A program made the position numbers and the translations under genes. The notes beneath the pieces were generated by a model, which made no database searches, was not told where the DNA came from, and saw only the letters and a list, made by a program, of their open reading frames with translations. From positions 128,001 to 192,000 of the forward strand of contig JBFWNU010000005.1 of assembly GCA_050250895.1 (NCBI GenBank): a stretch of DNA of 64,000 nucleotides, written 5' to 3'. The DNA comes from Vulcanimicrobiota bacterium (lineage in GTDB: Bacteria > Vulcanimicrobiota > Xenobia > Xenobiales > JADMJV01). Below are positions 38,216 to 64,000 of the stretch, in pieces. Position 1 is the stretch's first letter. Every line of letters begins with the position of its first letter.

Positions 38216-38332
38216 GTGGACGCTTTCAAAGACCTGGTCATCGCAGCAATCCTGGCCGGGATTGCCATCGAAGTCGGTTTTGCTGGACAGCCCATTTGCC
38301 GAGCCTACCGCAGCACTCTCGAGTGCCCCTGA
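38216..38332 (+). CDS. 38-aa single-TM micropeptide (not in ORF track)
   Basis: MDAFKDLVIAAILAGIAIEVGFAGQPICRAYRSTLECP*; TGATG-coupled to paralog 4. Confidence 0.6.
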   Translation: MDAFKDLVIAAILAGIAIEVGFAGQPICRAYRSTLECP

Positions 38333-41668: not shown

Positions 41669-41677
41669 CACGAGGGT

Positions 41678-41703
41678 TACGAGGCGGGGGTCCCGCCGGT
41701 TCA
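41678..41703 (-). promoter_or_regulatory. ECF-type promoter TGAACC-N16-CGTA
   Basis: Exact motif, 9 nt before ATG 41668. Confidence 0.8.
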
Positions 41704-41716
41704 AGGCCGACTCGAG

Positions 41717-43656: not shown

Positions 43657-44280
43657 CTAAGGCCGGACCGTTAAAGAAACCTCATTCAACCATTCGGCCA
43701 GCAGCTGGGCGGTCGCATCCTGGTGATAGAACTCGGCCTGCTGGCGGGGCGTGCGGCGATGACCGTTGAGGGCGTTGGGCTGGGCTCCGTGAGCGAGCAG
43801 GCAGCGCACCGTCTCGAGGTGGCCCTGGGCTGCGGCCAGGTGGAGTGGAGTCTGGCTGTCGTGAGAGTGAAGCCACTCCAGCTCCTCTTTGCCTGGGCCG
43901 TGGGGGTCGATGACGGGTGGGTTGACCGGGGCGCCAGCCGCGATGAGCAGCTCGACGATCTCGGTTTGGCCGGCCTCGGCGGCGGTGCGAATCAAGTCGG
44001 GGCGAAGAGGCGAGGCACCCTGTTCGAGCAGCAGGCGCACAAAGCGGGGACGGCCTTCGTCGACGGCCAGGGCGAGAAGCGGTTCTGAGCACACCCTGCG
44101 GCCGGCGAAGGTGTCCTGGAGCTGGCGAAATCGAGCCAGCTCGTCGGCCTCGATGGTTTGTTCCATTTGGGCCAGAGTCTCGAGCTTCATCCGCGTGATG
44201 CGCTCCCCGATGCTGTTATAGCCGACTGCAGCCAGCAGCAGCAAGGCGATCAAGAGCAGGCATTTTTCTTGGCTTGTCAT
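43657..44280 (-). CDS. Membrane-anchored ankyrin repeat protein
   Basis: TPLHLAAAQGHLETVRCLLAHGA; N-terminal TM. Confidence 0.88.
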   Translation of the reverse strand: MTSQEKCLLLIALLLLAAVGYNSIGERITRMKLETLAQMEQTIEADELARFRQLQDTFAGRRVCSEPLLALAVDEGRPRFVRLLLEQGASPLRPDLIRTAAEAGQTEIVELLIAAGAPVNPPVIDPHGPGKEELEWLHSHDSQTPLHLAAAQGHLETVRCLLAHGAQPNALNGHRRTPRQQAEFYHQDATAQLLAEWLNEVSLTVRP

Positions 44281-44394
44281 TCTGCCAGCATAGCCGAAGG
44301 CGAGTCGATTCTGCGGTGAACTGGCTAACGCGCGTTCGGTGACGGGGATCACCATTAAAGGGACTTACCCTAGCCGGCGCAAAGCTAGCGCGGC

Positions 44395-46713
44395 GTGGAC
44401 ATCGAGGCTATGGCCAGAGAGGTGGGGGGGCCGGTTTACCCGGTCATTCGGCAGCAGCCGGATCCGATGGCCTACCTCCGGCGCCACTACCCGGCGGCCC
44501 CTCGCGAGGATGCGGCCAACGGCTACGAACAGTGGCTCTTCGCCCAGATGTTGGCGGCTCGCCGGCCCCGGTTCACGCATCCGCCCCGGCGGCTGGGGCA
44601 TCGCCTGGTCTTGATTCTCAGCGCTCCTCGCTCGGGGTCGACGTTGCTGCGCAACGCCCTGTCGTTTGCCCCCGAAGTGCGGGCCATTCCCGAGTATGGT
44701 CTGCTGGCCTACGAGTCGAACGACCAGCTGGGCCTGCTTGGGGGACTGGGGATGCCAGTCGAGGACCCTGGTCGACTCTACGGCGGCAGCGTGCTGGAGA
44801 AGTCGACCAGCTACGCCCTCTGGCCGTCCCTGCTAGAGCGTTTAGCCGGCCACTTCGAGCGGCTCGAGTTGGTGCACCTGGTGCGAGACATCAGAGCCGT
44901 GCGCCGCTCTTTTGCCCGGGCCCGGCTGGACCGCGTCTTCTTTGGCGGGCGGCATCCCTTTGCTCCCGAGGTGCTGGGCGAGTTGGTGTGGCAAACGGTG
45001 GAACAGAATCTCAGCGAGTTCGAGCCCGTCCGCTTTGAAGAGCTGGTGGCTCGGCCCGAGCAGAGCTTACGCGAGTTGTGCCGGCGGCTTGGCCTGACCT
45101 TCCAGGAGCAGATGCTGGCCCCCTGGGACGTGCCCAGGGCTGGGCTCGACGACCCTTTTCATGGTGAGCATCGTCACTGGAAAGTGGCTGCTCCCGTGGT
45201 CGAGGCCAGCCGGCGGTTGCCCTGTCTCCACCAACTCGTGCGGGGCCAGGACGAGGCTCCAGCCGTGGCCGTCGGCCCACGGTCTTACACCTACGCCCAT
45301 CTGCGCCAGCGGGTCGAGGAAGTGGCCGGCTTTCTGTCAGGGCGCTGTCGGCCCGGGTCTCGGGTGGGTCTGACCATGGCACCGGGCTTCGAGGGACTGG
45401 CCTGTATGCTTGCCATCATGCGCGTCGGCGCCATCTACGTCCCCCTGCCCCCTCAGCTTCCCCCCGCCCGCCGGGCTCAAGTCGAGCGTCACATCGAGCT
45501 GTTAGTCGACCAGCCGCCGCCGGCCGGACCCGACCCGGGACTCCCCTGGGACGACCCCACCAGCCCAGCCTACGTTCTGTTCACCTCCGGCTCTACTGGG
45601 GTTCCCAAAGGCGTGGTAGTAGCCCATCAGGGAGTAAGCAATGTGGTGCTGCAACAGATCGCCCTGTTTGAAGTCGAGCCTCACAGTCGGGTGCTGCAGG
45701 GGGCGCCCTGGACCTTCGACACTTCCATCGTGCAGATGTTCATGGCTCTGGGAGCAGGGGCCACCCTGGTTTTCCCAGAGCATCCCCTGGAGTTGGCCGA
45801 GGCTGCCCGGGGCGTGACCCATTTGGACCTGGTCCCCTCGCTGCTGGCCACCTTGCCTGATGAGCTCGAGGCACGCGTCATCAGCACCGGAGGCGAGCCA
45901 TGCCCCCGAGGGCTGGTCCAACGACTGGCCACCGGCCGCCGTTTCTTCCATTGCTATGGCCTGACCGAGACTTCCATCTGCTCGACCCTGCGCGAGTGCT
46001 TTGCCGACGAGGCTGACGACCCGCCCATCGGTCGTGCTCTCGAGGGCGTCCATGTCTATCTGCTGGAAGACGGGCAACCGGTCCCTTTCGGAGCCGAAGG
46101 CGAGCTGTACATCGGGGGAGTTGGAGTGGGGCTGGGGTATCTCGATGGCGGCGACCGGTTCCTTCCCGATCCCTTCCGCCCGGGCAAGATGTTTCGCACC
46201 GGAGACCGGGCGCGTTACAACGCTGATGGAGAGCTGGTCTTTCTGGGCCGAGTCGACCGCCAGCTCAAGCTGGGCGGGGTCCGCCTCGAGCCCGGTGAGG
46301 TCGAGAGCCTGTTGCGCACTCATCCCCGGATCGAGCAGGCCACCGCCAAGTGTTTCGAAGGGAGCCTGGTGGTGAGCTACCAGGGTACCCTCGAGCCCGC
46401 TTTGGCCACTGAATATCTGCGCCAGCACCTCCCCTCGGAGGCCATGCCCACTCGCCTCGAGCGGCTCGAGTGCGAGACCGCGGCAGCCACCCCGCGCGGA
46501 CTGGCCGCTCGGGTGGCCGGATTGTGGGCCGGCACGGTGGGGGCCTCGCACTGGCCAACCGCTCGGCGCTTCTGGGAGAGGGGAGGTACTTCCCTCGACT
46601 TGATGCGGTTTCGCGCCCGCCTCGAGCAAGAGTTGGGGGGCTCGGTGGCCATGGCCGACCTGTTTGCCCATCCCACTCCGGCGCAGCTGGCAGCCCACCT
46701 GGAGAAGCGATGA
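44395..46713 (+). CDS. Sulfotransferase-A-PCP NRPS
   Basis: SAPRSGSTLL and HLVRD (PAPS sites), FTSGSTGVPKG, FRTGD, GGTSL. Confidence 0.85.
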   Translation: MDIEAMAREVGGPVYPVIRQQPDPMAYLRRHYPAAPREDAANGYEQWLFAQMLAARRPRFTHPPRRLGHRLVLILSAPRSGSTLLRNALSFAPEVRAIPEYGLLAYESNDQLGLLGGLGMPVEDPGRLYGGSVLEKSTSYALWPSLLERLAGHFERLELVHLVRDIRAVRRSFARARLDRVFFGGRHPFAPEVLGELVWQTVEQNLSEFEPVRFEELVARPEQSLRELCRRLGLTFQEQMLAPWDVPRAGLDDPFHGEHRHWKVAAPVVEASRRLPCLHQLVRGQDEAPAVAVGPRSYTYAHLRQRVEEVAGFLSGRCRPGSRVGLTMAPGFEGLACMLAIMRVGAIYVPLPPQLPPARRAQVERHIELLVDQPPPAGPDPGLPWDDPTSPAYVLFTSGSTGVPKGVVVAHQGVSNVVLQQIALFEVEPHSRVLQGAPWTFDTSIVQMFMALGAGATLVFPEHPLELAEAARGVTHLDLVPSLLATLPDELEARVISTGGEPCPRGLVQRLATGRRFFHCYGLTETSICSTLRECFADEADDPPIGRALEGVHVYLLEDGQPVPFGAEGELYIGGVGVGLGYLDGGDRFLPDPFRPGKMFRTGDRARYNADGELVFLGRVDRQLKLGGVRLEPGEVESLLRTHPRIEQATAKCFEGSLVVSYQGTLEPALATEYLRQHLPSEAMPTRLERLECETAAATPRGLAARVAGLWAGTVGASHWPTARRFWERGGTSLDLMRFRARLEQELGGSVAMADLFAHPTPAQLAAHLEKR

Positions 46714-47534
46714 AACGAACCAGGCGCAGTCTCATGTGTTCTCCCGATCACTTCCAGGTGAGCTACTCTATCAACGACTGGATGGATCCGACCCGAGCCG
46801 TCGACCAGGAGCTGGCCCAGAGCCAGTGGCAGTCGCTCAAAACGCGGCTCGAAGAGTTGGGCCAGCAGGTGATGGTGGTCCCGGGCCAGGCCGGCTGGCC
46901 CGACATGGTTTTCGCGGCCGACTGCGGGTTGGCCCTGGGCGGCACCTTTTGGGTCAGCAACTTTCGCCATCCCGAGCGGGCCGGTGAGGCCGACCACTAC
47001 CGGAGGTGGTTCGAGTCCAACGGTCTTCAGGTGAGACAGGTGCCGGCCGGGATCACCTTCGAGGGTCTGGGCGACGTGATCGTGTGCGAGCGCGGTCTGG
47101 TGGTGGGCCTGGGGCCCCGCTCGTGTCCCGAATTGGCGGGCTGGTTACAGGACCAGGGTCTGCCCGTTTTGGCCCGCGTCGAGCTAGCCCAGGAGCGATT
47201 TTATCACACCGCTAATGTCCTGGCTTGTCTGGACGGGTCCACGCTGATCTATTATCCCGACGCCTTCACTGCCGCCAGTCGCCAGGCGCTGTCCTTGGTC
47301 TTCGATCAGTTGGTGGAATGCACTCAGAGCGACGCGGTCGACCACTTCGCTTGCAACTGCATGACGGTCGCCCAGACAGTGCTGATGGGAGAGTGCTCTC
47401 CACCGCTGCGGGCCCAGCTAGCGCGGTTGGGGTGGAGGGTCGAGAGCCTGATTTTATCGGAATTCAAAAAGAGTGGGGCAGGAGTTCGGTGCCTGGTGTT
47501 GGATTTTTGGCAGCATGATCTGCCTGGGGGTTAA
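46710..47534 (+). CDS. Amidinotransferase/DDAH-fold (pentein) protein
   Basis: LMCSPDHF, PDMVF, FEG.GD, FYH, EFKKSG..RCL. Confidence 0.85.
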   Translation: MKRTRRSLMCSPDHFQVSYSINDWMDPTRAVDQELAQSQWQSLKTRLEELGQQVMVVPGQAGWPDMVFAADCGLALGGTFWVSNFRHPERAGEADHYRRWFESNGLQVRQVPAGITFEGLGDVIVCERGLVVGLGPRSCPELAGWLQDQGLPVLARVELAQERFYHTANVLACLDGSTLIYYPDAFTAASRQALSLVFDQLVECTQSDAVDHFACNCMTVAQTVLMGECSPPLRAQLARLGWRVESLILSEFKKSGAGVRCLVLDFWQHDLPGG

Positions 47535-49197
47535 CTCGGTCTACCACGAGTCGTCTGCTTGTATCGTGGTCGACGGTGAGGTGGTAGCGGCCGTTGAAGA
47601 AGAGCGGTTCTGCCGTGTCAAGCACGGCAAGGTGGCTCGTGTCGATAATCCCCAGACCCTCCCTCTGGCTGCCATCGATTACTGTCTGCGGCAAGCCGGA
47701 GTGCGGCCACAGCAGGTCGAGCACATCGGTTACTCTTTCGACCCGGCCCGGCGGGTTGCTCCACCGCCAGAAGAGGTCGAGCCCGAGAGCTGGGGGTCGT
47801 CGATAGGCGAGGACACCTTCCGGCGTGGCCTGAGCGAGGTGCCAAAACTGTTGTCGGCTATAGGTCTGACCGGGTCGCTTCACTGGCTGGGCCATCACCT
47901 TTGCCACGCCGCCTCGGCTTTCTACGCTTCGCCCTTTGAAGAGGCGGCGGTGATGACCGTCGATGGCATCGGCGAGAATGACAGCTCGAGCATGGCGGTG
48001 GGACGAGGAACCGATCTGACCGTGCTCGAGCGGGTGGCCTATCCGCATTCGCTGGGTTTTCTGTGGGAGAAGCTGTCTGGCTTTCTCGGCTTTTCGTGTT
48101 ACGACGCTGGCAAGGTCATGGGGTTGGCTCCCTATGGTCGGGCCGAGCGCTTCGCCGTCGAACTGGCCAGCCTGGTCTGGCCCACTCAGGCGGGAGGCTT
48201 CCAGGTCGACCATCGTCGGCTGAAGTTTCGTAGCTCGGATTTTTCGCCTCTCGAGGAGCTCTTTGGTCTGCCTCGGCGAGGCCCAGAGCAACCCGTCCTG
48301 GAGGCTCATCAGGACCTGGCCGCGTCCCTCCAGGCCGCCACCGACAGAATTGTCCTGCATCGTACTCACGAGCTTTATCACCGAACTTCGCTGTCGTGTC
48401 TGGCCATGGCAGGAGGGGTGGCTCTCAACTGCATCAGCAACCGGGTGGCCTTCGAAGAGGGACCGTTTCAGGAGTTTTTCGTTCAGCCCGCTGCCCACGA
48501 TGCCGGGACGGCCCTGGGGGCTGCCCTCTACCTGGCGGCCCGCACCAGCGGAAAGCGGCCGCTTCCTTTGCTGGATCCCTATCTGGGCCCCCAGTTCTCG
48601 GCTGCCGAGATGGAGGAAATGCTGCGCGCTCAGGGTCTGGTGTTTTCCCGTCCCCGTGACCTGACCGGCGAGGTGGCCCGGCGGCTGGCCCAGGGCAAGC
48701 TGGTGGGCTGGTTTCAGGGTCGCATGGAACTGGGCCCCAGAGCTCTAGGCAACCGCAGCTTGCTGGCCGATCCACGCTGCCCGGCCGTGCGCGAGACGCT
48801 CAATGCTCGCATCAAGAATCGCGAAGCCTTCCGTCCCTTTGCCCCCAGTGTGCTCCAGGAGCGGCTGGGGGAGTGGTTCGAGGTCAAGAAGCCCACCTCA
48901 GCAGCCGAATCCATGCTGGTCTGCTATCCGGTCAAGCCCGAGCGACGCGATCAGATCCCGGCCGTGGTCCATGTCGATGGCAGCAGTCGCGTGCAGGCGG
49001 TGTCGGCTCGCTCCAATCCCCTCTTCCATGAACTGCTACAGAAGTTCGAGGATTTTACGGGCGTGCCCATGCTGCTCAACACCTCGTTCAACGACCGCGA
49101 GCCCATCGTGTGCACGCCGCTCGATGCCTACCTGGCTTACCAGCGAATGGGCCTGGACGCGCTGGCCATGGGGCCCTACCTGGTGGAGGCCCCGTGA
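47515..49197 (+). CDS. Carbamoyltransferase, NodU/CmcH family
   Basis: EEERF, HHLCHAAS, GKVMGLA, GPRALGNRS, FRPFAP, LNTSFN. Confidence 0.95.
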   Translation: MICLGVNSVYHESSACIVVDGEVVAAVEEERFCRVKHGKVARVDNPQTLPLAAIDYCLRQAGVRPQQVEHIGYSFDPARRVAPPPEEVEPESWGSSIGEDTFRRGLSEVPKLLSAIGLTGSLHWLGHHLCHAASAFYASPFEEAAVMTVDGIGENDSSSMAVGRGTDLTVLERVAYPHSLGFLWEKLSGFLGFSCYDAGKVMGLAPYGRAERFAVELASLVWPTQAGGFQVDHRRLKFRSSDFSPLEELFGLPRRGPEQPVLEAHQDLAASLQAATDRIVLHRTHELYHRTSLSCLAMAGGVALNCISNRVAFEEGPFQEFFVQPAAHDAGTALGAALYLAARTSGKRPLPLLDPYLGPQFSAAEMEEMLRAQGLVFSRPRDLTGEVARRLAQGKLVGWFQGRMELGPRALGNRSLLADPRCPAVRETLNARIKNREAFRPFAPSVLQERLGEWFEVKKPTSAAESMLVCYPVKPERRDQIPAVVHVDGSSRVQAVSARSNPLFHELLQKFEDFTGVPMLLNTSFNDREPIVCTPLDAYLAYQRMGLDALAMGPYLVEAP

Positions 49198-52100
49198 GCG
49201 AATTGGCCATCACCGGCCTGGCCTTGCGCTTTCCCGGGGCCAACAGCTGCCGGCAGTTCTGGGACCTGCTGCGCCATGGACGTGAGGGCATCTCGCGCTT
49301 TGCCCCGCGGCCCGACCAACCCGACTACGTGCCGGCCCGAGGCGTGCTGGGCGGGCTCGAGCACTTTGAACGGCAGCTCTTCGGGTTGAGCGCCAGCGAG
49401 ACCCGGATCGCCGACCCCCAGCACCTGGTTTTGCTCGAGTGTGTGTGGGAGGCGCTGGCTAACGGGGGCTATCACCCGGCCCGATTTGCCGGCAAGATCG
49501 GCATCTTCGCTGGAGCGGCCAGCAATGGACACCGGAGCGAGCCAGGCACCGACGCCCTGGGCAGTCTCTCGCGTGCCCTGGTCAACGAGGTGGACTTTCT
49601 CACCACCCGCGCCTCCTACCACTTTGGTCTGACCGGACCGAGCGTGGTGGTGCAGAGCGCCTGCGCCACCTCCCTGGTGGCCCTCCATCTGGCCGCCCAG
49701 AGCCTGCGCAATCGGGAGTGCGACCTGGCCCTGGTGGGGGCCGTTTCGATTCGCCTTCCCCAGACGGTCGGCTACCACTATGTCGAAGGAGGGATTCTTT
49801 CTCCCGACGGCCATTGCCGCCCGTTTGACCGCCAGGCCGCCGGCACCGTCAGTAGTAACGGCGCGGCTGTGCTCGTGCTGCGTCGCCTGGAGGAGGCCTG
49901 GCGCGAGCGCGACACCATCCGGGCCATCCTCAAGGCCACGGCCGTCAACCACGACGGCTCCAACAAAATAGGCTATACCGCCCCCAATCCGACTGCCCAG
50001 GTAGAGGTCATGCGCAGCGCCCTGGAGGCGGCCGGGGTCGAGCCCGCCCAGGTGGCTATGCTCGAGGCCCACGGCACAGCCACCCGGTTGGGGGACTCGG
50101 TCGAGGCCTGGGCCCTCGGTCAGGTCTACCAGTCGGGGACTCACTGGCTGGGCTCGGTCAAGAGTAACCTCGGCCACCTCAACACGGCCGCCGGTATGGC
50201 TGGATTGGTCAAAGCCGTCCTGAGCCTCGAGCACGGCCTGGTTCCGCCCACCTTGCACTTCGAGCAAGCCCACCCCGAGTTAGGCCTCGACCCGGCCGTG
50301 TTCACCGTGCCTACCAGTTGTCAGAGCTGGCCCGAAGGGCCGCGAATGGCTGCCGTCAGCTCGATCGGTTTGGGAGGTACCAACGCCCATACCGTGCTGG
50401 CTCAGGCTCCCGAGCGCAAAGCCCTGGAGGCCCTCGAACGGCCTCGTCTATACGTGCTCAGCGCCCGCACCCGGCCGGCCCTTGAGGCCCTCCAGGAGGC
50501 TATCACCTCGACCGGACCAGACGTGTCCTTCACCTTGCGCAACGGACGGGCCGAGCTTGACTGGCGAACTTTCAGCCTCGACACCAGCCAATGGAGCAGC
50601 CGGCGCCGACTCGAGTCGCCGCGTCTTGCCTTTGTCTATCCGGGGGTCGGCGATCACTATCCCGGCATGGGGCGGGAACTCTACCAGCGCGAAGCCGTCT
50701 TTCGCGACTCGCTGGAGGCTAGCCAGGCTTGTCTGGGCGGCGGCCTGCTCGAGCGGCTCTACAGGGGGCAGCCGCTAACCGGCGTCTGGGCTCATCTGGC
50801 CGTGGTGGCTATCGAGGTGGCCCTGACGTCGCTGTTGGCCAGTTGGGGGCTGCGGCCCGAGGCTACCCTCGGGCACTCTCTGGGCGAGTATGTCTCGGCT
50901 TACACTGCCGGCGTCCTCTCGCAGGCCCAACTGCTTCGTCTGGTCCGAGCCCGGGCCGAGGCGGTCGAAAAGCTCGAGCCCAGCGCCCAGCTGGTGGTTC
51001 CCCTTGGGGCCGCTCAGCTCTCGCTGGGGCCTGGGCTTCACGCCTGTCTGGAGAACGGACCGCACCTGACGGTGGCGGCCGGGTCTTGTCAGGCGGTTGT
51101 CGAGCTGCAAGAGCGCCTCAAAGCCGAAGGCGTGCCGAGCCAGACCGTGCTCGATGGCCGAGCCTACCACTGTCCCCTGGTCGAGCCAGCCCGCGCGACC
51201 CTCGAGGCGGTCCTGGCCGAGCTCGAATTCAACCCCGGCCAGGTGCCCTGGCTGAGCAACCTCGATGGCCAATGGAAGGATCGGGCCGGACCTGACCATT
51301 GGCTCGAGCACCTGGTGCGGCCGGCCCGCTTTTCTCAGGCCCTGGCTCGTCTGGCCGCCGAGCCAGACTGGGTGGTACTCGAGGTCGGACCCGGCACCAG
51401 CCTGCAAAGCTTGGCTCGCCAGGCCGGGCTCCCGCGCGTGGCCAGCTGTTTGGGCACGGCTCTCGAGACTGCCCGGGACGACCATCGCCGCACCCTGGCG
51501 GCGGTGGCAGAAGCCTGGACCTGGGGAGTCGATTGTGACCTGGCGGGCCTGGACCCTGATGGCGGCCGTGTGCCCCTGGCGCCCTATCCCTTCGGCTTGA
51601 AGGACGAAACAGGACAGCTGCCGTCAACGGCTCCTATGGATGCCCTCGAGCAGGTCTGGTGCGGGGTGCTGGGCCTCGAGCGCGTGGGTGACGAGGACGA
51701 CTTCTTCCGGCTGGGCGGCAATTCTTTGTTAGCACTGCAGCTGATTCATCGCCTCCAGGTCGACTTCGGACTAGGTCTCAAACTGCAGCAGTTCTTGCAG
51801 AATCCGACCCTGGCCGCCCAACGTGCTCTTCGCCTGGAGCAGGTGGACAGCCACCGCCAATTGATAGTGGGCGAGCCCGACCAGATTCACCAGCCCTTCG
51901 AGTTGACTGATGTGCAGGAGGCCTACTGGGTGGGCCGCCGCTCAGAATTCGGGGCCGAGGTCTCGACCCATGGCTACGCCGAGATCGACAGCTCCATCGA
52001 AGTCTCGGTGATGGAAAGGGCCTGGAACCGGCTCATCGCTCATCACCCCATGTTGCGAGCGGTGGCCAGCGCCGACGGCCGGCAGCGGGTGCTCAAGTCG

Positions 52101-55670: not shown

Positions 55671-56658
55671 TCGCTTTGAAATACTCGGGATAACTCGGTG
55701 CCTCGAGACCGCTCCAGCCAAATCCGCCCTGGTTGCGGCTAAAGCCCGCCAGGCGCAAGCTGATGTCCATCATGCGGTTGCGGGTATTGGCCTGGTAGTC
55801 CACCTGCAGACTCAAGCCGGCGCCCTGGGCCCGCCGCATCAGGTAGGTCAGCAGACCGATGCCCACCCCTCGGTTGAGGACGCGGCAAGAGGTCAATAAG
55901 AGCCGGCAACGATGTTGGGGCGGCCGTTCGTCGACTAGCGCCAGAGCCACCGTGCCGTAGTCTCCGAAACGATCGCAAGCCCGCATCAGCCAGCAGCGCA
56001 CGCCTGCTTCCATCAGCTGCTGCAGGTCCTCGCCTCGATAGACCAGGCCGGTGCTGTTGAGCTGGGTAGTGCGGGCGGTCAACTCTTCGGCTCGGCTCAG
56101 GTGCTCTGGCCCGGCCTCGAAGATATCGAGCTCCAGCTCGAGTTCGGCCAGAAATTCTAGCGACGGTCTCTGATGTTCTTGCTCGGCTTGCTGGCGGCGG
56201 ATCTCGAGTTGCACCAGTTCTCGACGACGGCCCGCTTCGGGGCTCCGTGACCGGGGGCTGAAGGCTTCCATCGAGGCCACTTCGCCCAGTTGGGTGACGT
56301 CGAGACAGAGCACCTGCGGATGGACACTGGCCACCTCGGCGCGTTCCACCGGGCAGTCGTCGACAAAGGCGATGTTGCCCGGAGCCAGTTGCAGCTGTTC
56401 GGCGATACGGGCGATGGCCACGGACTTCGCCGACCAGCCGATTTGAGGATAGACGAAATAGTCGTCCAGTCCGTGCGAGCGCAGGTGCGACAAGACCAGA
56501 GCGTTATCGTTCTTGCTGGCGATCGAATGTAGGATGCCGCGCTCATCGAGCACACGCAGGGCGGCCTCTGCCTGGGCTCGAGGGCGGGCCGGATCGCCTT
56601 CGCTCAGGACACCCTCCCAGAGGGTCTCGTCAAGGTCCCAGACCAGGCATTTGATCAC
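55630..56658 (-). CDS. FkbH-like glyceryl transferase (HAD-IIIC)
   Basis: VWDLDETLW, ASKN, FVDD, DRFGDYG, SCRVL. Confidence 0.9.
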   Translation of the reverse strand: MIKCLVWDLDETLWEGVLSEGDPARPRAQAEAALRVLDERGILHSIASKNDNALVLSHLRSHGLDDYFVYPQIGWSAKSVAIARIAEQLQLAPGNIAFVDDCPVERAEVASVHPQVLCLDVTQLGEVASMEAFSPRSRSPEAGRRRELVQLEIRRQQAEQEHQRPSLEFLAELELELDIFEAGPEHLSRAEELTARTTQLNSTGLVYRGEDLQQLMEAGVRCWLMRACDRFGDYGTVALALVDERPPQHRCRLLLTSCRVLNRGVGIGLLTYLMRRAQGAGLSLQVDYQANTRNRMMDISLRLAGFSRNQGGFGWSGLEAPSYPEYFKAINAPRADDEPARD

Positions 56659-57689
56659 AGCAGCTCCTTCCCCAAAAAGGCGGCCAACACCGGTTGGCTG
56701 CCTTCGATGATCTCCATGACTTTCGAGTCGCGCAGGTGTCGCTGCAACGGATTCGATAGCAGGCATCCTACCCCACCTTGTAGGCACACAGCAACCTCGG
56801 CCGCCCGTCGATAGCTGGCGGCGGCGGCAAATTTGGCGGCCATGGCCAGACTGGCACAGTCGGGCTCGCGTTCTTGCCAGGCCCGGCTGGCTCGTCTGGC
56901 CAGTCCTTCCAGGGCCAGAGCCTCGACCCGCATCTGGCCCAGGCTGGCCAAAACCTGGCCATGCTCACCCAACCCGCGCGCGCGAACGTGCTCGATACTG
57001 GATTCAAGGCAGGCCTCAAGCCCCCCCAGGCAGCCCCAGGCGACACCCAGCCGCCCCAGGGTCAAGCACTCCTGAACCACCAGGGCCAACCCCAGACCTT
57101 CGCCCCCTACCAGCTGGTTGGCCTCTACTCTACACGCATCGAAATGGACCGATGCGCTCAGGCTGGCCTGCAACCCGGCCAACGGCTCGGAGGGCTCGAC
57201 CCGGAGTCCCTCTTGCTCGCGGCTAACCCAAAAGGTAGTCAGCCCACCCGGCGCCCTGGCCAGCACCAGAAAGGCATCGGCTATCTGGCCGAACGAAACC
57301 CAGGTCTTGGTTCCGCTCAGCCGATAGCCTGTCTCATCGAGTCGGGCTCGACAACGGACCCGGTCCAGGCGGGTTCCGGCGCCCTCTTCCGAAGCGGCGA
57401 AGGCGGCAAATTTGCTGCCCGCCTCAAGAGGCCCTCGCCATCGCTCGACCAGCGAAGATTGGGCTCGCCGAACCAGGGCCAACAACGCCATGGAGTGGAC
57501 CGTGACCAGGGTGCGTAGCGACCCCGAGCTGGCGCCGAGCTGGCGATTGATTTCGGCAAACTCGAGGCTGTCGGCGTGACTGGCCAGCGCTCCCGAGGCT
57601 GCCAGCCGGATAAGGACCGAGGTGGGCAAGCTACCCTCTTCTTGGGTGGGAAGCTCGAGCTGGCGAGCAAACGCCTTCCAATCGGTCAA
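56655..57689 (-). CDS. Acyl-ACP dehydrogenase (FkbI/ZmaE-like)
   Basis: LVTVHSM, GTKTWVSFG, RDSKVMEIIEGS. Confidence 0.85.
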   Translation of the reverse strand: MTDWKAFARQLELPTQEEGSLPTSVLIRLAASGALASHADSLEFAEINRQLGASSGSLRTLVTVHSMALLALVRRAQSSLVERWRGPLEAGSKFAAFAASEEGAGTRLDRVRCRARLDETGYRLSGTKTWVSFGQIADAFLVLARAPGGLTTFWVSREQEGLRVEPSEPLAGLQASLSASVHFDACRVEANQLVGGEGLGLALVVQECLTLGRLGVAWGCLGGLEACLESSIEHVRARGLGEHGQVLASLGQMRVEALALEGLARRASRAWQEREPDCASLAMAAKFAAAASYRRAAEVAVCLQGGVGCLLSNPLQRHLRDSKVMEIIEGSQPVLAAFLGKELL

Positions 57690-57913
57690 AGCTTGGCCCT
57701 CACCAGGCCAATCAGCGCTTGAAAGCTTTGAAAGTTGGCTCGCTGGAGATCGTCGGGCCCCAGTTGAATGGAGAATTCTTTCTCGAGAAACATGACCAAC
57801 TGCAAAGCGAATAGACTGGTCAGATAACCCGACCCGAAAAGGTCTGCTTCGGTCAGGGCTCGCTCGGGCACGTGACGCAACAGATATTCGCGCACGCGTT
57901 GCTCAATTCTCAT
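57686..57913 (-). CDS. Stand-alone acyl carrier protein (FkbJ/ZmaD-like)
   Basis: LFGSGYLTSLFALQLVMFLEKEF. Confidence 0.88.
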   Translation of the reverse strand: MRIEQRVREYLLRHVPERALTEADLFGSGYLTSLFALQLVMFLEKEFSIQLGPDDLQRANFQSFQALIGLVRAKL

Positions 57914-58757
57914 ATTCGAAGAAGCCCTTTCCACTCTTGCGGCCGAGTCGCCCCGCAGCCACCATCGCTCGCAGCCGCGGGGCCGGCTCGAAACGTTGGG
58001 GATCGACCCGTTCGGCCAGGATCTCGAGGGTGTTGAGCACGGTGTCCAGGCCGATCAGATCGGCCGTAGCCAGGGGTCCTTCAGCGTGACCGAAGCAGCC
58101 GCGAAAGAGCCTGTCGATTCCGTCGGCTTCGGCCCTTCCCTCGTCGAGCACCCGGATTGCTTCATTGAGGGTCAGCATCAGGACCCGGTTGGAGACAAAG
58201 CCCGCGCCGTCCTTCACACTCACCCACTGCTTGCCCAGGCTCTCGAGAAAGTCGTGAGCTTGCGACAAGGTAGCCGGACTGGTGGAGGGCGCCTCGATCA
58301 GCTCGACCCAACCGTTGAGATGGACCGGATTCATGAAATGGATGCCGACCAGTCGCTCGGGCCTGGCCAGCAGTGAGCCAAGCTCGGCAATGGGAAGCGC
58401 CGAGGTGTTGGCGGCCAACATAGCCTGGGGACAGAAGCGGTCGAAAAGAGGATAGAGTTCAGCTTTGAGTGCCCAGTCTTCGGTGATATTCTCGACCACT
58501 ACCGAACATTCCGAGAGCAGCTCGAGTGAGGTCGCAGACTGAACCCTCCCCAGGATTCGAGAGGCATCCTGGCTATCGTCGAGCCCGAAGAATCGCCGAA
58601 ATCGCAGTTGTCGGGCCATGCCGGCCAGGCTGCCCTCGAGCTGGCTGGCCCGGTCATCCACCAGCCTGACCTGATGACCTCGCAGGCAGGCGCACAGAGC
58701 GACCCCGCTACCGATCACGCCGGCTCCCACCACACCAACACACAACACCACCGTCAA
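57903..58757 (-). CDS. 3-hydroxyacyl-ACP dehydrogenase (FkbK/ZmaG-like)
   Basis: GAGVIG, ENITE, IHFMNP, GFVSNRVL. Confidence 0.9.
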   Translation of the reverse strand: MTVVLCVGVVGAGVIGSGVALCACLRGHQVRLVDDRASQLEGSLAGMARQLRFRRFFGLDDSQDASRILGRVQSATSLELLSECSVVVENITEDWALKAELYPLFDRFCPQAMLAANTSALPIAELGSLLARPERLVGIHFMNPVHLNGWVELIEAPSTSPATLSQAHDFLESLGKQWVSVKDGAGFVSNRVLMLTLNEAIRVLDEGRAEADGIDRLFRGCFGHAEGPLATADLIGLDTVLNTLEILAERVDPQRFEPAPRLRAMVAAGRLGRKSGKGFFEYEN

Positions 58758-58829
58758 GCCTACGCCCAGCGCCGGGCAACTCCTTTTTCCCCGAAAGGAC
58801 TTCGGGGTCCAAGCAGAGTAACGGCCAGA

Positions 58830-61800
58830 ATGCGGGGCCTAGGGGAACTAACACCGGAACAGCGCCAACTCTTTGATCGGCTGTTGGCCCAAACCAACGA
58901 CCATCGCCTGCGCCCGCGCCCGTCGGGCGAAACGCCGCTCTCCTACGCTCAAGAACGCATTTACTTTCTGGAACAACTCGGCCCTCAGAGCACGGCCTAC
59001 ACGGTGGCCTGGGGCTTTGACGTGGTGGGGCCCCTCGACTGCGGGTGTCTCAAAGAGGCCTTCCGGCGGTTGCGCGACCGCCACGAGATCTTGCGGGCCC
59101 GCTGTGTAAAAACCTCGACCGGTGCCCGTCTCGAGTTCGAGCCACCCGGGCCGGTCGAGGTTCTCGAGTTGGACCTGCGAGGTCTGGCCCGAGACGAGGT
59201 AACCACCCGAGCCACCGAGTTGATTCGCGCCCCCTTTGAGCTCACCGCCGGCAGCTTGTCCCGGCTCAGCTTGATCCGGGTCGGCCCAGACGAGCACGTG
59301 CTGCTCTTGCACTCCCACCACCTGATCGTGGATAGCTGGTCGGCCAAGGTGATTTTGCGCGAACTGGGTTCGGTTTATGCCGCCCTGGTCCAGGCCCGCG
59401 AGCCGGCTCTAGAGCCTCTCCCCTTGAGTTATAGCGACTTTGCCTTCTGGCAGCGTCAGCGCCAGCAGAACTGGGCCCAGGAGATCGCCTATTGGAAAGA
59501 GGCTCTGGCCGGGGCACCCACATGCCTGACTCTACCGACCGATCATTCTCGCCCTGCCTTTCGCAGTTATCGCGGTCAGAAGCACCACTTTCGGGTGGAC
59601 TCGGCCCTGGCCGACCAGTTGGCCGAGTCGGCCCGGCAAGGCGGGGTGACGCTCTTTAGCCTGCTACTGGCCTTGTTTGGCGCTTATCTTGGCCGCTTGA
59701 GCGGTCAGTCCGAGGTGGTGATAGGGGCAGCTCTCTCGGATCGCTTTCCGGCCGAGACCGAAGCGATGGTGGGGTCGTTCGCCCACTTGCTCCCCTTGCT
59801 GTGTGGCTGTGGGCCCGACGAGACTTTAGCCGACCTATTGCCTCGAGTTCGCCAGACGGTGGCCGGAGCGTTAGCCCACAAAGAGGTGCCTTTCGAGCGT
59901 CTGGTCGATGAGTTGGCCCCGCCTCGCAATCTCGACCACGATCCCATTTTTCAGGTCATGTTCGTGCTTCACGAGGACCCCCTGGAAGAAGAGCTGCACC
60001 TGCTCGGCTGTCAGGTCCGGCGACGGGTACTGGAAAAGGGTGGCTCGCGTTTTGACCTGATGCTCGAGATGGTGGACGGTGAGAACGAGCTATTCGGATG
60101 GTTCGAGTATAGTCTGGACCTTTTCGAGCCGGCCACCATCGCCGCCATGACCGAGCAGTTCTGGTTGCTGGTCGCGGGGGCCCTGGCCGCGCCTGAGGCC
60201 CCTCTGGCCGACCTGCCCCTGGTGCCCCCTTCCCAGCCCGAGCCATCGCTTGGGCCCGCTCTCGCGATCGATCCCGAAGTGCGGGTGGAAAGCTTGATTG
60301 CGAGCCAGGCCGCACTTCGACCTGAGCAGCTGGCGGTAGACCAGCTGACCTATGCCCAACTCGCCGAGCAGGTCCAAGTCAGGGCCGCCAGCCTCTTGAG
60401 CCAGGGTCTGGCGGCCGGACAACTGGTGAGCCTCAGCTCCTACAAAAATTCCCAGCTGCTGGTGAGTATGCTGGCGGTGTGGAGGTGCCAGGCTTCGTTC
60501 TTGCCGCTCGGTCCCGACTGGCCCGCTCGCCGGCGGCAGGCGGTGGTGGCGGCCTCGGGCTGTCACTGGCAGTGGGAACAGGAGGTCTGGCGGGCTGGCC
60601 CGGGTGGGTCCCCTTTCGACTCCAGCCGGGCTTATGCCATGGCGACCTCGGGCTCGAGCGGCCTGCCTAAGGTGGTGGCGGTCAGCCATCGGTCGCTGGC
60701 AAACCTCTTGCTGTCGATGGCCGATGAACCCGGTTTTGGGCCCGACGATAGCCTCCTGAGCGTGACCACTCCCACTTTCGACATCGCCTTGCTAGAGTTC
60801 TTCTTGCCCCTGGTGGCCGGCGGTTCGGTCCAGTTATTACCTGACGAGATCCGAGGGGGTTGTGGTTTGCGGCAGGCTCTCGAGCGAGGCCAGCCCAGCG
60901 TGGTGCAAGCTACGCCAACCATGTGGCGGATGCTGCTCGAAACCGGTTGGCGGCCCACGAACGGGCTAAAGATCTTGTGCGGCGGCGAGGGCCTCTCGCG
61001 CCAGCTGGCCGGGCAGCTGCTAGGGGCCGACTCACTTTGGAACCTCTATGGTCCCACCGAAACCACCGTCTGGTCGACTCTGCACAGGGTCCAGAGCGCC
61101 GACCGGGAGCCACCCATCGGGCGGCCCATCGCAAACACCCGCATCGAGATCCGAGATGATCGAGGACGGCCCGTTCCGCGAGGAGTGGTCGGCGAGATCT
61201 GCATTAGCGGTCTGGGGGTGGCTCAAGCCTATCTCGGTGGCGATGAGCTCGCTCGCGAAGGGTTCTATCATACTGGTGACCTGGGCTGCTGGGATCGCCA
61301 CGGACAGCTCCACTTCGCAGGACGCCGCGACCAACAGGTCAAGGTCAGGGGCGTGCGCATCGAGTTGGCCGAAGTCGAGCATGCGCTACTCGGTCACCCG
61401 GGCATCAGCAGCGCCGCGGTGGTTGCCCGCCAGGATGAACTGGTGGCCTTTCTGGTTGGCGACCCGGCTCCGGCCAACGTCCTTCAGGCCTATCTGCGAG
61501 GCCGCCTGCCCGAGGCCTTCGTGCCCTCGACCTTCCACTTTCTCGAAAAGTTTCCGACCACCGCCAATGGCAAGCTCGACCGGCGGGCGCTCGACGCCAC
61601 CGGCGGCCCACCCGCTCCGGCCGGCAGCACCTATCGGGCTCCCCAGACCCCCACCGAGGCCCGGGTGGTGGAACTCTACGAGGCGACCTTGCAGCGGCAG
61701 CCGGTGGGCTGCGAACATGACTTCTTCGCCCTGGGAGGACACTCGTTGCTGGCCATTTCGCTGGCCAGTCGTCTTGAGACGGCATTCGAGCTGACTTTCC

Positions 61801-61928
61801 CTCTGCGCAAGGTCTTCGAGCTGGGCACGCCAGCACGCGTTGCCGGCTGGCTCGAACAGCAGATTCTGCTCGAGATCGAAGCGATGAGCGAAGAAGAAGC
61901 CAGCCATCTGGCCTTCGGTCATGGATAG
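58830..61928 (+). CDS. NRPS module C-A(Gly)-PCP
   Basis: HHLIVDSWS; specificity code read by eye as DILQLGLVWK; GGHSL. Confidence 0.88.
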   Translation: MRGLGELTPEQRQLFDRLLAQTNDHRLRPRPSGETPLSYAQERIYFLEQLGPQSTAYTVAWGFDVVGPLDCGCLKEAFRRLRDRHEILRARCVKTSTGARLEFEPPGPVEVLELDLRGLARDEVTTRATELIRAPFELTAGSLSRLSLIRVGPDEHVLLLHSHHLIVDSWSAKVILRELGSVYAALVQAREPALEPLPLSYSDFAFWQRQRQQNWAQEIAYWKEALAGAPTCLTLPTDHSRPAFRSYRGQKHHFRVDSALADQLAESARQGGVTLFSLLLALFGAYLGRLSGQSEVVIGAALSDRFPAETEAMVGSFAHLLPLLCGCGPDETLADLLPRVRQTVAGALAHKEVPFERLVDELAPPRNLDHDPIFQVMFVLHEDPLEEELHLLGCQVRRRVLEKGGSRFDLMLEMVDGENELFGWFEYSLDLFEPATIAAMTEQFWLLVAGALAAPEAPLADLPLVPPSQPEPSLGPALAIDPEVRVESLIASQAALRPEQLAVDQLTYAQLAEQVQVRAASLLSQGLAAGQLVSLSSYKNSQLLVSMLAVWRCQASFLPLGPDWPARRRQAVVAASGCHWQWEQEVWRAGPGGSPFDSSRAYAMATSGSSGLPKVVAVSHRSLANLLLSMADEPGFGPDDSLLSVTTPTFDIALLEFFLPLVAGGSVQLLPDEIRGGCGLRQALERGQPSVVQATPTMWRMLLETGWRPTNGLKILCGGEGLSRQLAGQLLGADSLWNLYGPTETTVWSTLHRVQSADREPPIGRPIANTRIEIRDDRGRPVPRGVVGEICISGLGVAQAYLGGDELAREGFYHTGDLGCWDRHGQLHFAGRRDQQVKVRGVRIELAEVEHALLGHPGISSAAVVARQDELVAFLVGDPAPANVLQAYLRGRLPEAFVPSTFHFLEKFPTTANGKLDRRALDATGGPPAPAGSTYRAPQTPTEARVVELYEATLQRQPVGCEHDFFALGGHSLLAISLASRLETAFELTFPLRKVFELGTPARVAGWLEQQILLEIEAMSEEEASHLAFGHG

Positions 61929-64000
61929 CCAGCTGTCGCCGGCCAAGCGAGCGCTGCTAGCCCGCCGACTACAAGGTCGCTCCCAGCGCTCACCAGACGG
62001 CCTGACCGCGAGCCCGCTGGCCTCGCGGGGCATGGAGAGGCTGTGGTTCTTGCACCGGCTCGAACAGCAGGCGCCGATCTATAACATCTATTGTCACTAC
62101 CGGATTCGCGGTCAGCTTGAGATAGAACGCCTCAGCCGTGCCTGGAGCGAACTGGTCGAACGCCATGCGGCCCTGCGAACTCGGCTGGTGGAAGCGGGCG
62201 ACCAGCTCTTGCGCCAACCATGTCCAGCGCCCCGACTGGCTCTGATGGACCAGCCCCAAGACCTGGCCCAGGCGCTGCGGGCCTTGCGGCGCGAGCCGTT
62301 TGACCCGGCCACCGGACCCCTGGCCCGAGCGGCGCTGACGCCGGTGGGTCCCGACCATCATGTGCTGACCATGGTGCTCCACCATATCATCTGTGACGGC
62401 TGGTCGTTGCGGCTGCTCGAGCGCGAACTGGGGGCTCTGTATTCGGGCCAAATCCTGCCGCCGCTAGAGGCCGACTATGGTCACTTCGTGGCCTGGCAGG
62501 CAAGCCATGACGAAGGGCGGGAGCTTGCCTACTGGCACGAGCGCCTGGCCTGTCCGACGCGCTGCGAGGTGCCCACCGACCTGGGCCGCCCGGCCCGCTC
62601 GGACTACGCTTGCAGGCAGCTACGCCGACCGGTAGCGGCCCCGGCTTTGCGCCAACTCGCCCAGGGCTACCGGACCACCATCTTCACGCTCATCCTGGCC
62701 GCCTTCAAGGCCACCCTGTGTGCCTGGGTGGGAAGCAGCGATATCCTGGTGGGAACGCCCATGGCCGGTCGCTTGCAGCCCGCTTTCGAGAGCCTGGTGG
62801 GCTTTTTCGTCAACACCCTGGTGTTGCGGACCTGCCTGGACGGCGATCCCACCTTCGCAGAGGTGATTGAGCGGGTGGGTGAGACGGTCTTGCAGGCCCA
62901 CGAGCATCAGCGGCTGCCCTTCGAGCGGTTGGTACGCGAAATAAAGCCTGACCGCGACAGCGGCCGCAACCCGCTCTTTTCGGTGATGTTCGTGGGCGAA
63001 GACGGCCCTCGTCAGGTTGTGCCCCTGGTCGGGCTCGAGGTCGAGCCGCTCGAACTCGAGCGAGAGGCCCTGCCTTATGACCTCGAAGCCCGTTTCACCG
63101 ACCTGGGGGAGCAGCTGGTGCTAGCCATCGACTACGATCCAGCCCTCTATGCCGAAACGACCGTCAAAGACTTGCTCGAGCATTTTGCCCAGGTTCTCGA
63201 ACGCCTCGGGACTGCCTCCGAACTCCCCCTATCTCGATGGGGCGCCCTGCCATCGGCCTATCTCGAGAGTTTGAACGAGCGCCTGTCGGGGCCGGTGGTG
63301 GCTCACCCCGGCGGGTGTCTCCACCACCGTTTCGAGCAGCAGGCGCGGTCCACGCCCGAAGCGGTCGCCGTGGTCGACGAGGGCCGCCAGTATAGCTATC
63401 AAGAACTCAACCAGGCGGCCAACCGGCTGGCCCATCGCTTATTGCGCCAGGGCGCCGGCCCGGGGCGGGTGGTGGCCCTGCCCCAGCCCCGTGGCTACTC
63501 GGCCCTGGTGAGCATTCTAGGCATTCTCAAGACTGGCGCGGCCTATCTCCCCCTCGACCCGCAACTGCCGGAGGCCGTGGTGGCCGACCGCCTGGCCGAC
63601 AGCCAGGCCCTGGTGCTTGAGCTAGAGGCTTTCGATGGCCCCGTCAACGACCCGCCTCCGGCCGGCCGGGCCCAAGACATTCTCTGCATTCTCTATACTT
63701 CGGCCTCGAGCGGCCCGGCCAAGCGGATAGCCTGCCCTCACCGGGGGGCCGTCCATCGTCTGGATTGGGGCAGCCGTGAGTTGCCGCTCGCTCCCGACGA
63801 GGTGGTCGGTCAACGCGCCAGCCTGGGCTTTGTGGACTCGATTGCCGAGCTCTTTTCGCCGCTTTTGAGTGGGGCTCGGCTGGTGTTTTTGCCCGAACTC
63901 GACTCTTTGTCGCGGTGGACCGCCCAGCTTCGCCGTCAGCGAGTAACCCGCTTGCTGGTGGTGCCCAGCCTGCTGGCTACTCTGCTTGAGTCAAGCCTCG
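61921..64000 (+). CDS. NRPS C-A (beta-Ala-type), runs off window
   Basis: MDSQLSPAKRALL; HHIICDGWS; YTSASSGPAK; FVDSIAELF. Confidence 0.88.
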   Translation, partial: MDSQLSPAKRALLARRLQGRSQRSPDGLTASPLASRGMERLWFLHRLEQQAPIYNIYCHYRIRGQLEIERLSRAWSELVERHAALRTRLVEAGDQLLRQPCPAPRLALMDQPQDLAQALRALRREPFDPATGPLARAALTPVGPDHHVLTMVLHHIICDGWSLRLLERELGALYSGQILPPLEADYGHFVAWQASHDEGRELAYWHERLACPTRCEVPTDLGRPARSDYACRQLRRPVAAPALRQLAQGYRTTIFTLILAAFKATLCAWVGSSDILVGTPMAGRLQPAFESLVGFFVNTLVLRTCLDGDPTFAEVIERVGETVLQAHEHQRLPFERLVREIKPDRDSGRNPLFSVMFVGEDGPRQVVPLVGLEVEPLELEREALPYDLEARFTDLGEQLVLAIDYDPALYAETTVKDLLEHFAQVLERLGTASELPLSRWGALPSAYLESLNERLSGPVVAHPGGCLHHRFEQQARSTPEAVAVVDEGRQYSYQELNQAANRLAHRLLRQGAGPGRVVALPQPRGYSALVSILGILKTGAAYLPLDPQLPEAVVADRLADSQALVLELEAFDGPVNDPPPAGRAQDILCILYTSASSGPAKRIACPHRGAVHRLDWGSRELPLAPDEVVGQRASLGFVDSIAELFSPLLSGARLVFLPELDSLSRWTAQLRRQRVTRLLVVPSLLATLLESSL

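Follow-up and report, generated by a model that had tools for sequence, protein, structure and literature searches.

A sulfotransferase-led starter protein and an ArgZ-related pentein in a putative hybrid NRPS-PKS gene cluster from a Vulcanimicrobiota bacterium

The stretch of DNA studied here, 64,000 nt from a Vulcanimicrobiota bacterium (contig JBFWNU010000005.1, positions 128,001 to 192,000; hereafter the window), carries at positions 44395-64000 ten genes for an assembly line that combines parts of a nonribosomal peptide synthetase (NRPS) with those of a polyketide synthase (PKS), and the 3' end of which lies beyond the window. Its product is probably a small peptide that bears a sulfate and contains a ring. 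We regard these genes as the 5' part of an uncharacterised cis-acyltransferase hybrid NRPS-PKS cluster; its domain content and gene coupling are directly seen, and with the chemistry that we deduce from them the reading is given slightly less than an even chance. Judged by its sequence, the cluster is real, apparently intact and rare, and its starter unit is more interesting than the list of its tailoring genes. This unit consists of a sulfotransferase (ST) fused in front of an adenylation (A) domain and a peptidyl carrier protein (PCP), and would most simply serve as a sulfate-capping starter, in analogy to the formylation modules of other NRPSs.

Results

The starter protein (772 aa; 44395..46713, plus strand) contains an ST (Sulfotransfer_3, E 2e-11; approximately residues 68-265), an A domain (AMP-binding, E 6e-59) with the pocket code DTVDSGCIC, and a PCP (PP-binding) with the serine motif GGTS; a half-carrier remnant makes up approximately residues 1-35. 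The ST belongs to the CurM/olefin-synthase (Ols) family (E 2e-16), and its model superimposes on the structures 4GOX and 4GBM with a Z score of 16.0 and a root-mean-square deviation of 2.9-3.0 over 189-194 aligned residues, the next family following at Z 11.7. The loop that binds 3'-phosphoadenosine-5'-phosphosulfate (PAPS), the source of the sulfo group, is kept, as are the aligned Glu and Lys positions that we take to be the catalytic residues, and this intact-looking enzyme lends support to the sulfation named in the original prediction, which had been made from the letters of the window alone.

Among 1.84 billion representatives, 1265 relatives of this ST were found, and the best 150 of them were examined together with P0002, a close relative of the starter protein (159 ST domains). 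A carrier precedes the ST in 131 of these 159 cases; eight STs are positioned immediately before an A domain. Upstream of the latter, the carrier serine motif is present in none of the seven ST-A proteins scored; it is found in 77 of the 98 other cases whose upstream region is long. In P0244, which was not caught by the serine-motif pattern, a Tyr replaces the carrier serine, and the first ~35 residues of the window starter align with the last helices of such a dead carrier. Since the upstream carrier is dead, the ST most likely acts on the downstream PCP. These features place the window protein in a small group of proteins in which a dead carrier, an ST, an A domain and a PCP are combined with varied amino-acid pockets: DTVDSGCIC in the window protein, P0002, P0229 and P0244 (read by hand in the first two), Arg-type codes in P0233 and P0283, and others in P0252 and P0256. 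That one type of enzyme is found across several side chains points to the alpha-amine, which is common to all of them, as its target. Formylation domains likewise act after loading, and on the next carrier (PMC8949500; all PMC sources are cited here from excerpts). In the ST tree, from which three of 51 rows were dropped as lacking the motif, P0244, P0233 and P0252, with their three different codes, group together at an SH-aLRT (branch support) value of 96.

A CurM-like sulfonation followed by elimination was given low weight, there being no ketoreductase (KR) to provide a beta-hydroxyl and no thioesterase (TE) behind the ST. As an aside, the relatives P0249, P0251, P0285, P0291, P0319 and P0347 are NRPS modules with an ST embedded behind a code presumably specific for 2,3-diaminopropionate (Dap), and two of them have a terminal TE; they are candidates for monobactam-type lines with a built-in ST.

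The next gene (46710..47534, plus strand) encodes a pentein of 274 aa with the ArgZ/Rv2323c fold, for which matches were found in NCBIfam and the Protein Data Bank (PDB) and none in Pfam. The NCBIfam matches to dimethylargininase (E 9e-65) and arginine dihydrolase (E 2e-57) are both below their cut-offs; with 195 bits against the 450 set for the arginine dihydrolase family, the protein falls outside the ArgZ equivalogs. Its closest structure is nevertheless ArgZ (E 2e-50; template-modelling (TM) score 0.87-0.93; 37-39% identity). The catalytic triad E118-H166-C261 is kept, as are D65, R90 and R137, which we equate with the anchors of this enzyme type, Arg and Asp residues that hold the substrate by its free carboxylate and amine (PMC11659421). 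Two positions differ: Asn71 of ArgZ is Asp71 in the window protein, and Asp170 of ArgZ, the guanidinium-binding Asp two positions after the catalytic His (H+2), is Ala168. The ArgZ pair occurs in 74 of 87 homologues, and Asp168 is retained in 79 of 81 other homologues. When 37 rows picked from the homologue matches were placed in a tree, the five penteins that have Asp71 and lack Asp168 came out as one clade (99/99). Deiminases use the H+2 Asp to hold the guanidino group; in dimethylarginine dimethylaminohydrolase (DDAH) another residue takes its place, so that a substituted nitrogen is admitted (PMC11659421). This DDAH-like loss of the Asp, combined with the kept anchors for the amino acid, argues for an enzyme that hydrolyses a free, substituted amino acid of the arginine type in a single step. 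In ArgZ, Asn71 drives the second hydrolysis; the title of PDB entry 6JUZ states that the exchange N71S traps an intermediate.

A direct connection between the two proteins is provided by P0229, an ST-A-PCP protein that carries a pentein fused to its C-terminus, with the same pocket code, 46% identity to the window pentein and the same residue signature. Because of this fusion, we consider ST-A-PCP and the pentein to form one unit. The pocket of the starter A domain fits such a pairing: DTVDSGCIC keeps D278, G301 and I330 of the Arg consensus and lacks its E239 (consensus residues from PMC12283262), and with E239 lost and the other three kept, the pocket suits a neutral product.

A first competing account, which we consider unlikely, treats the pentein as an ordinary supplier of ornithine in the manner of ArgZ or Lon22; the A domain would then load ornithine, and the ST would sulfonate its side-chain amine, as SulN does on Dap, blocking ring closure onto the ketone. 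The lone acid at position 278 could hold an amine, and related STs come after codes that we presume to be Dap-like. The closest structure is, as said, ArgZ, a ddaH gene adjoins NRPS genes in locus L083, and the N-sulfonation of tethered Dap is known (PMC11298585). The L083 enzyme, like the 74 homologues mentioned above, keeps Asn71 and the H+2 Asp, however, whereas the window enzyme has changed both and lies in a separate clade; moreover, the pocket codes of the ST-A proteins are unrelated to each other.

The original prediction had also named guanidino chemistry. This holds in so far as a guanidino compound is the expected substrate; its installation finds no support in an ArgZ/DDAH-type hydrolase that has lost one guanidinium-binding Asp. 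Amidinotransferases need both of these Asp residues, and the pentein more likely removes than installs a guanidino nitrogen, so that the product is unlikely to contain a guanidino group. The installation of a guanidine by an amidinotransferase, for instance in a 2-aminoimidazole closed on an amino-ketone as in saxitoxin, would be in line with three toxin reviews, two of them on saxitoxin by title, which alone among the papers searched combine four of the five items amidinotransferase, carbamoyltransferase, sulfotransferase, hybrid NRPS and thiazole. The top Atlas cluster is automatically named amidinotransferase, and the larger pocket might take an acceptor. Against these points stand an identity of 10-15% to SxtG, HsvA and AGAT, fold scores far below that for ArgZ, the length of 274 aa and the missing Asp, and we hold this alternative to be very improbable.

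ST and pentein might, alternatively, build a sulfur-nitrogen unit together: the ST would sulfonate the guanidine of arginine, and the pentein would cleave the product to a sulfamate or an N-sulfo-urea. A DDAH-like pocket requires a substituted guanidine, the ST is the nearest candidate for its maker, and two ST-A relatives have Arg-type codes. Such a reaction may also explain the pairing of sulfotransferase and amidinotransferase in nucleocidin and ascamycin. For nucleocidin this pairing is a requirement without an explanation (PMC10946740, PMC9113183), and the S-N step itself is treated as unexplained (PMC9113183); sulfamylation requires nucN, nucK and nucO, and the folds closest to NucO are the STs of CurM and Ols (PMC10946740). 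Nucleocidin sulfamylation needs at least 11 enzymes according to the same source, whereas the window shows just an ST and a pentein, and about nine further pathway genes listed there are not in the window. Furthermore, the pentein appears suited to a free amino acid and the ST to a tethered one. We consider this S-N chemistry to be quite improbable, albeit less so than guanidine installation.

The reading of the starter as a sulfate-capping unit fed by a single-step hydrolase has to be weighed against several observations. The window ST is ~40 residues shorter than its relatives, it sits on a long branch outside the group of P0244, P0233 and P0252, and the ST-A proteins do not come out as a single clade, a grouping that approximately unbiased (AU) tests only fail to reject (p 0.36 and 0.23). 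The solved relatives of the ST sulfonate hydroxyls. Among the scanned window genes (16 and 30 genes in two scans), neither a source of an N-substituted arginine nor PAPS-synthesis genes were found, and ArgZ-type ornithine supply has precedent in NRPS clusters (Lon22, KasD; PMC12305651). The nearest fetched relatives of the A domain outside its group have Tyr-type codes, and DTVDSGCIC was found in no searched paper or supplement. Finally, a ~28-residue deletion in the starter A domain removes motif A10 including Lys517, a residue reported to be conserved in all alpha-amino-acid-activating domains. Lys517 is required for adenylation. Asp235 is present in the window protein; its A domain may nonetheless be inactive, and unaided adenylation is doubtful.

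The deletion bears directly on the possibility of a starter arm that decays or depends on loading in trans. If the A domain were inert, a downstream A-PCP beyond the window might load the PCP, or the line might start elsewhere. A span of 116 aa from motif A8 to the carrier occurs only in the window protein and P0002 among 362 junctions (next 137, median 149; the junction of P0229, 124 aa, was missed by the junction pattern), and the A3 motif of the last module in the window is divergent as well. Dead A domains are complemented in trans in albicidin, ramoplanin and enduracidin (PMC8949500). Yet P0002, at ~65% identity, has the same deletion together with all nine pocket residues identical, so that the domain is still under selection, and there is no in-frame stop in any of the ten reading frames; P0229 and P0244 retain A10. 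A deletion common to both sisters with an unchanged pocket disfavours assembly error and simple decay alike. Either the active site is completed by a partner, or loading of the PCP takes place in trans, as it does in albicidin. Overall, we rate a trans-loaded or decaying starter arm as improbable, somewhat more so than the ornithine supply discussed above.

Downstream of the pentein, a full-length carbamoyltransferase of the CmcH/NodU/TobZ family is encoded (47515..49197, plus strand). Its Kae1-like and YrdC-like domains are both full length, and its closest structures are NovN-type (E 9e-93), TobZ (E 9e-91) and GdmN; carbamoylation, as originally proposed, thus has an intact-looking enzyme behind it. 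The largest gene (49194..55670, plus strand) specifies a hybrid of 2158 aa with the order ketosynthase (KS), acyltransferase (AT), acyl carrier protein (ACP), heterocyclization (Cy), A, PCP and nitroreductase-type oxidase (Ox) domains, without a KR or dehydratase.

Its AT has the active-site motif GHSLG and a RAYH lid, lacks the Gln and the HAFH motif of 40 of the 51 ATs scored, and is neutral at the RxR patch, which is basic in ATs that use coenzyme A (CoA) substrates (PMC4207774). In comparison with ATs for ACP-linked extenders (ZmaA type), the basic patch is lost and the lid altered, but the patch is not hydrophobic (MxW), and the AT tree does not resolve. The window AT resembles an FkbH-adjacent AT in locus L010, whose best structure is ZmaA; for the window AT itself, ZmaA ranks only eighth. 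The genes for the extender lie on the opposite strand, a feature missed by the original prediction, as was the absence of A10: an FkbH-type glyceryl transferase (55630..56658, minus; TIGR01686 at 224 bits, exceeding its cut-off; start taken from the gene junction), an acyl-CoA/ACP dehydrogenase (56655..57689, minus; family match), a stand-alone ACP of 74 aa (57686..57910, minus) and a 3-hydroxyacyl-CoA/ACP dehydrogenase (57903..58757, minus; family match). With FkbH, ACP and two dehydrogenases present, and neither an O-methyltransferase nor a Ser-activating enzyme among the scanned window genes, the extender is likely hydroxymalonyl.

The A domain of the Cy module has the code DLFNISGIW, which departs from the Cys consensus DL[YF]N[LM]SLIW at position 322. 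Gly322 is found only in the window protein and P0104 among 651 cores, and the nearest cores are Cys-type. PMC12283262 has a comparable code, DLYNLSGVWK, in its section on Leu/Ile/Val and gives it as also taking Ala; owing to this likeness, Thr or another beta-branched residue may be used instead. Whether the azole is a thiazole or a methyl-oxazole is consequently less sure than it appears. The polar azole-containing peptide-polyketide that had been predicted remains tenable within the tests possible, with its azole type less secure now that the Cys consensus is seen to be broken.

Two NRPS modules complete the cluster as far as the window reaches, a condensation (C)-A-PCP module with the Gly code DILQLGLVW (58830..61928, plus strand) and a C-A module open at the window end (61921..64000, plus strand) with a VD-type, beta-alanine-like pocket and the partial code VDAL. 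The A domain of the latter is nearest to four VD-type domains, which we assume to be specific for beta-alanine.

All elements named originally, from ST-A-PCP, pentein and carbamoyltransferase to the PKS-Cy-Ox hybrid, the FkbH cassette and the Gly and beta-Ala-type modules, were recovered in family and profile searches, and no match to a TE was obtained in the ten cluster proteins within the window, again as stated before. The ten genes are tightly coupled, the stop and start codons of neighbours overlapping inside each transcription unit, and follow one another as a plus-strand block, the minus-strand extender block and a second plus-strand block. The E-values and these overlapping codons exclude a chance assembly of parts. 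The KS Cys-His-His and AT Ser-His residues, the carrier serines and the C and Cy motifs are intact in coupled genes, in keeping with a cis-AT hybrid PKS-NRPS. The synthetase domains are trimmed, the hybrid having 2158 aa as against 2434 in P0139 and the starter 772 as against 1058 in P0244; P0002, P0104 and P0229 are likewise trimmed. The GC content at third codon positions is 0.76 in the cluster and 0.79 in 16 other genes, and recent transfer is not clearly indicated. No Rfam match and no long repeat inside the cluster were found, and predicted promoters (1 versus 1.2 expected) and terminators (15 versus 9.7 expected) gave no useful signal.

Three cluster proteins were searched against a large protein set by a word index, with up to 8000 candidates scored. 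Each has one close relative, P0002 (65%, ST region), P0018 (61%) and P0104 (67%, whole hybrid), and the next-best relatives outside these sister proteins reach 39-49% identity. As the longest contig listed for each of the three measures 31,655 bases, they point to one sister cluster and are probably encoded on a single contig. The KS-AT-ACP-Cy-A-PCP-Ox layout is not unique; P0139, P0176 and P0207 have it at 39-42% identity.

In a genome scan by the last module, the best 80 of 570 relatives (27-37% identity) included no locus with a pentein, one with an ST, three each with a carbamoyltransferase and a full FkbH cassette, and one with a true Cy plus Ox; in none were two of ST, pentein and carbamoyltransferase combined, and the contig of the window itself was absent from these 80. 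Plasmid loci from Mycetohabitans and S. clavuligerus (carbamoyltransferases of 47-49%), Pseudonocardia (ddaH-NRPS), Agrobacterium (A-T-ST-TE) and Klebsiella, Brasilonema and Bradyrhizobium (hybrids) proved on inspection to be different clusters, and the region from the Ox domain to the extender genes (54950-58757) had no DNA match in E. coli genomes. Nor was such a cluster, module or pocket code found in the papers and supplements searched, MIBiG, most subscription journals and bioRxiv supplements lying outside the scope. The earlier statement that the gene combination is not a recognised cluster stands for papers, plasmids and the best 80 of 570 genome loci; MIBiG was beyond this comparison.

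Some of the loci encountered deserve mention in their own right. The closest named carbamoyltransferase (49%) is encoded on plasmid pBRH01 of Mycetohabitans rhizoxinica (L081, 15001-31472), followed by a methyltransferase and a four-module NRPS with a TE. On the Agrobacterium vitis plasmid NZ_AP023281.1 (L084, 13048-16695), a single A-T-ST-TE protein is encoded near cysDN, a diaminobutyrate transaminase, methyltransferases and a transporter, apparently a compact uncharacterised cluster for a sulfated metabolite. On the Acidobacteriota contig JBBPIC010000002.1 (L049/L056), NRPS-PKS genes accompany an FkbH cassette, and NRPS genes with a carbamoyltransferase lie at a distance of tens of kb.

The genes to the left of the cluster appear unrelated to it. 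Divergent from the cluster lies an ankyrin-repeat protein gene with a hydrophobic N-terminal stretch (43657-44355, minus), next to a gene for a 356-aa protein without a family match (42576-43646, minus); the cluster membership of both is uncertain. Three genes to the left of the cluster, an (S)-ureidoglycine aminohydrolase (41717-42541, minus) scores above its NCBIfam cut-off; no other allantoin gene was recognised beside it, and a link to ureido chemistry is possible. Three pseudopilin/GspG-like paralogues with a strong common motif (37640-38116, minus; 38296-38736, plus; 41261-41704, minus) follow, two of which carry a common 84-nt repeat (86%). This pseudopilin-like gene scored 0.90 against a protein cluster in which Vulcanimicrobiota is the most frequent phylum and 0.92 against one made up mostly of Verrucomicrobiota, a weak lead to the host phylum; the family seems to be typical of Ca. 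Xenobia. Further away, an adjacent pair of BrxC/BrxD-family ATPase genes (9933-12603, plus; Pfam E 2e-39 and 6e-29; PADLOC BrxD and SngB) is followed by genes for a response regulator and a 1671-aa protein without a Pfam or PADLOC match; no further BREX gene was recognised near the pair. ARAGORN places a tRNA-Leu(CAG) (8419-8491, plus) within a minus-strand kinase/WD40 open reading frame (6740-8980), and either the start of the latter or the tRNA call is possibly wrong.

Discussion

In the pathway that we propose, and which as a whole we give a chance just below even, the pentein would carry out one hydrolysis on a free amino acid of the arginine type, probably N-omega-substituted, and release a neutral, citrulline-like amino acid, a step put forward tentatively and at nearly even chances. 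The dedicated A domain would bind this residue and load it onto the PCP; the link between pentein and A domain is highly probable. The fused ST would then probably transfer a sulfo group from PAPS to the starter while it is tethered, and it is an even question whether its position is the alpha-amine, the simplest choice by analogy to a formyl cap. The KS would probably extend the starter with hydroxymalonyl-ACP from the FkbH cassette, without reduction. We strongly expect Cy-A-Ox to add an aromatic azole, with Cys and hence a thiazole slightly favoured over a beta-branched residue such as Thr. Gly would very probably be added next, followed, as seems likely, by a beta-alanine-type residue. The carbamoyl group would most likely be placed on the hydroxyl derived from hydroxymalonate, a proposal that falls a little short of an even chance, or otherwise on the starter precursor. 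The product may be sketched as HO3S-NH-CH(R)-CO-CH(OH or OCONH2)-azole-CO-Gly-beta-Ala-(unseen), with a citrulline-like R; its sulfamate may stop the amino-ketone from cyclising or serve as a self-protective mask.

By analogy, the cluster would work like a hybrid line with a capped starter, joining an ST of the CurM type, a hydrolase derived from ArgZ, an extender like that of zwittermicin and a module similar to ClbK. Membership in colibactin, the CurM ACP-ST-TE unit, the ArgZ equivalogs and the amidinotransferases fails in each case on tested features. With the ACP-ST-TE units of CurM and olefin synthase (4GBM, 4GOX), it shares the carrier-linked ST family, the PAPS loop and the Glu/Lys positions, but the window ST is N-terminal before an A domain, is shorter, follows a carrier remnant without serine and has no TE behind it. 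The formylating F-A-PCP initiation modules of linear gramicidin, anabaenopeptilide and kolossin, which serve us as a working analogy, also place a tailoring domain before the first A-PCP; theirs is a formyltransferase rather than an ST, and capping is a prediction in the present case. The pentein has the fold, the Cys-His-Glu triad and the amino-acid anchors of ArgZ/AgrE, Rv2323c, Lon22 and DDAH, and differs from ArgZ and Lon22 by a DDAH-like pattern on an ArgZ scaffold, a clade of its own and the fusion in P0229.

The hydroxymalonyl-ACP pathway of zwittermicin (ZmaA, ZmaD, ZmaE and others) has the same cassette of FkbH, ACP and two dehydrogenases and a non-canonical AT; in contrast to the GYSFG/GAAH motifs of ZmaA, the window AT has GHSLG/RAYH, no KR is present and Cy-A-Ox comes next. 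In colibactin, ClbK (KS-AT-ACP-Cy-A-PCP-Ox) works with ClbD/E/F on an ACP-linked C2 extender, and a Gly module is present; the extender, aminomalonyl, derives from Ser and is used in trans-AT fashion, and genes for an acyl-Asn prodrug belong to the pathway. The window layout resembles ClbK, including a Gly module, but has FkbH instead of a Ser-activating A domain, an intact AT serine of a cis-AT system, and neither a prodrug peptidase nor an S-adenosylmethionine module within the window. N-Sulfonation of a peptide or amine would be shared with sulfazecin (SulN), allopeptimicin B (AptB) and scleritodermin A. SulN and AptB are stand-alone enzymes, though, and the window lacks a beta-lactam module; a scleritodermin gene cluster was not found in our searches. 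SulN acts on a tethered peptide (PMC11298585), and sulfamates are rare and can mask activity, as in allopeptimicin (PMC9169493).

The individual enzyme families of this cluster are known, whereas no description of its starter unit was found in the literature searched. A far-reaching version of our proposal, which we hold to be unlikely, is that ST-A-PCP with a dead N-terminal carrier represents an undescribed class of NRPS initiation that caps with a sulfamate and is paired with a re-pocketed pentein, the A domain being completed in trans and ST and pentein handling an N-sulfo-guanidine or N-sulfo-urea.

If the host belongs to Ca. Xenobia, its phylum is one for which PMC9259500 reports characterised pathways for ribosomally synthesised and post-translationally modified peptides (phospeptin, pythonamide). 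If the ST caps the loaded residue, a sulfamate-installing initiation module would be new to NRPS logic and engineering. With the pentein subclade, the ArgZ scaffold would gain a new activity, and an A domain under selection without Lys517 would imply a new way to activate or deliver a substrate. P0244 with its full pseudo-carrier, P0229 with its fused pentein and the split, trimmed window protein form a natural series that is testable with three or four synthetic genes. Should a trans-completed starter with N-sulfo chemistry of ST and pentein prove true, it would offer a small and testable system for how enzymes form S-N bonds.

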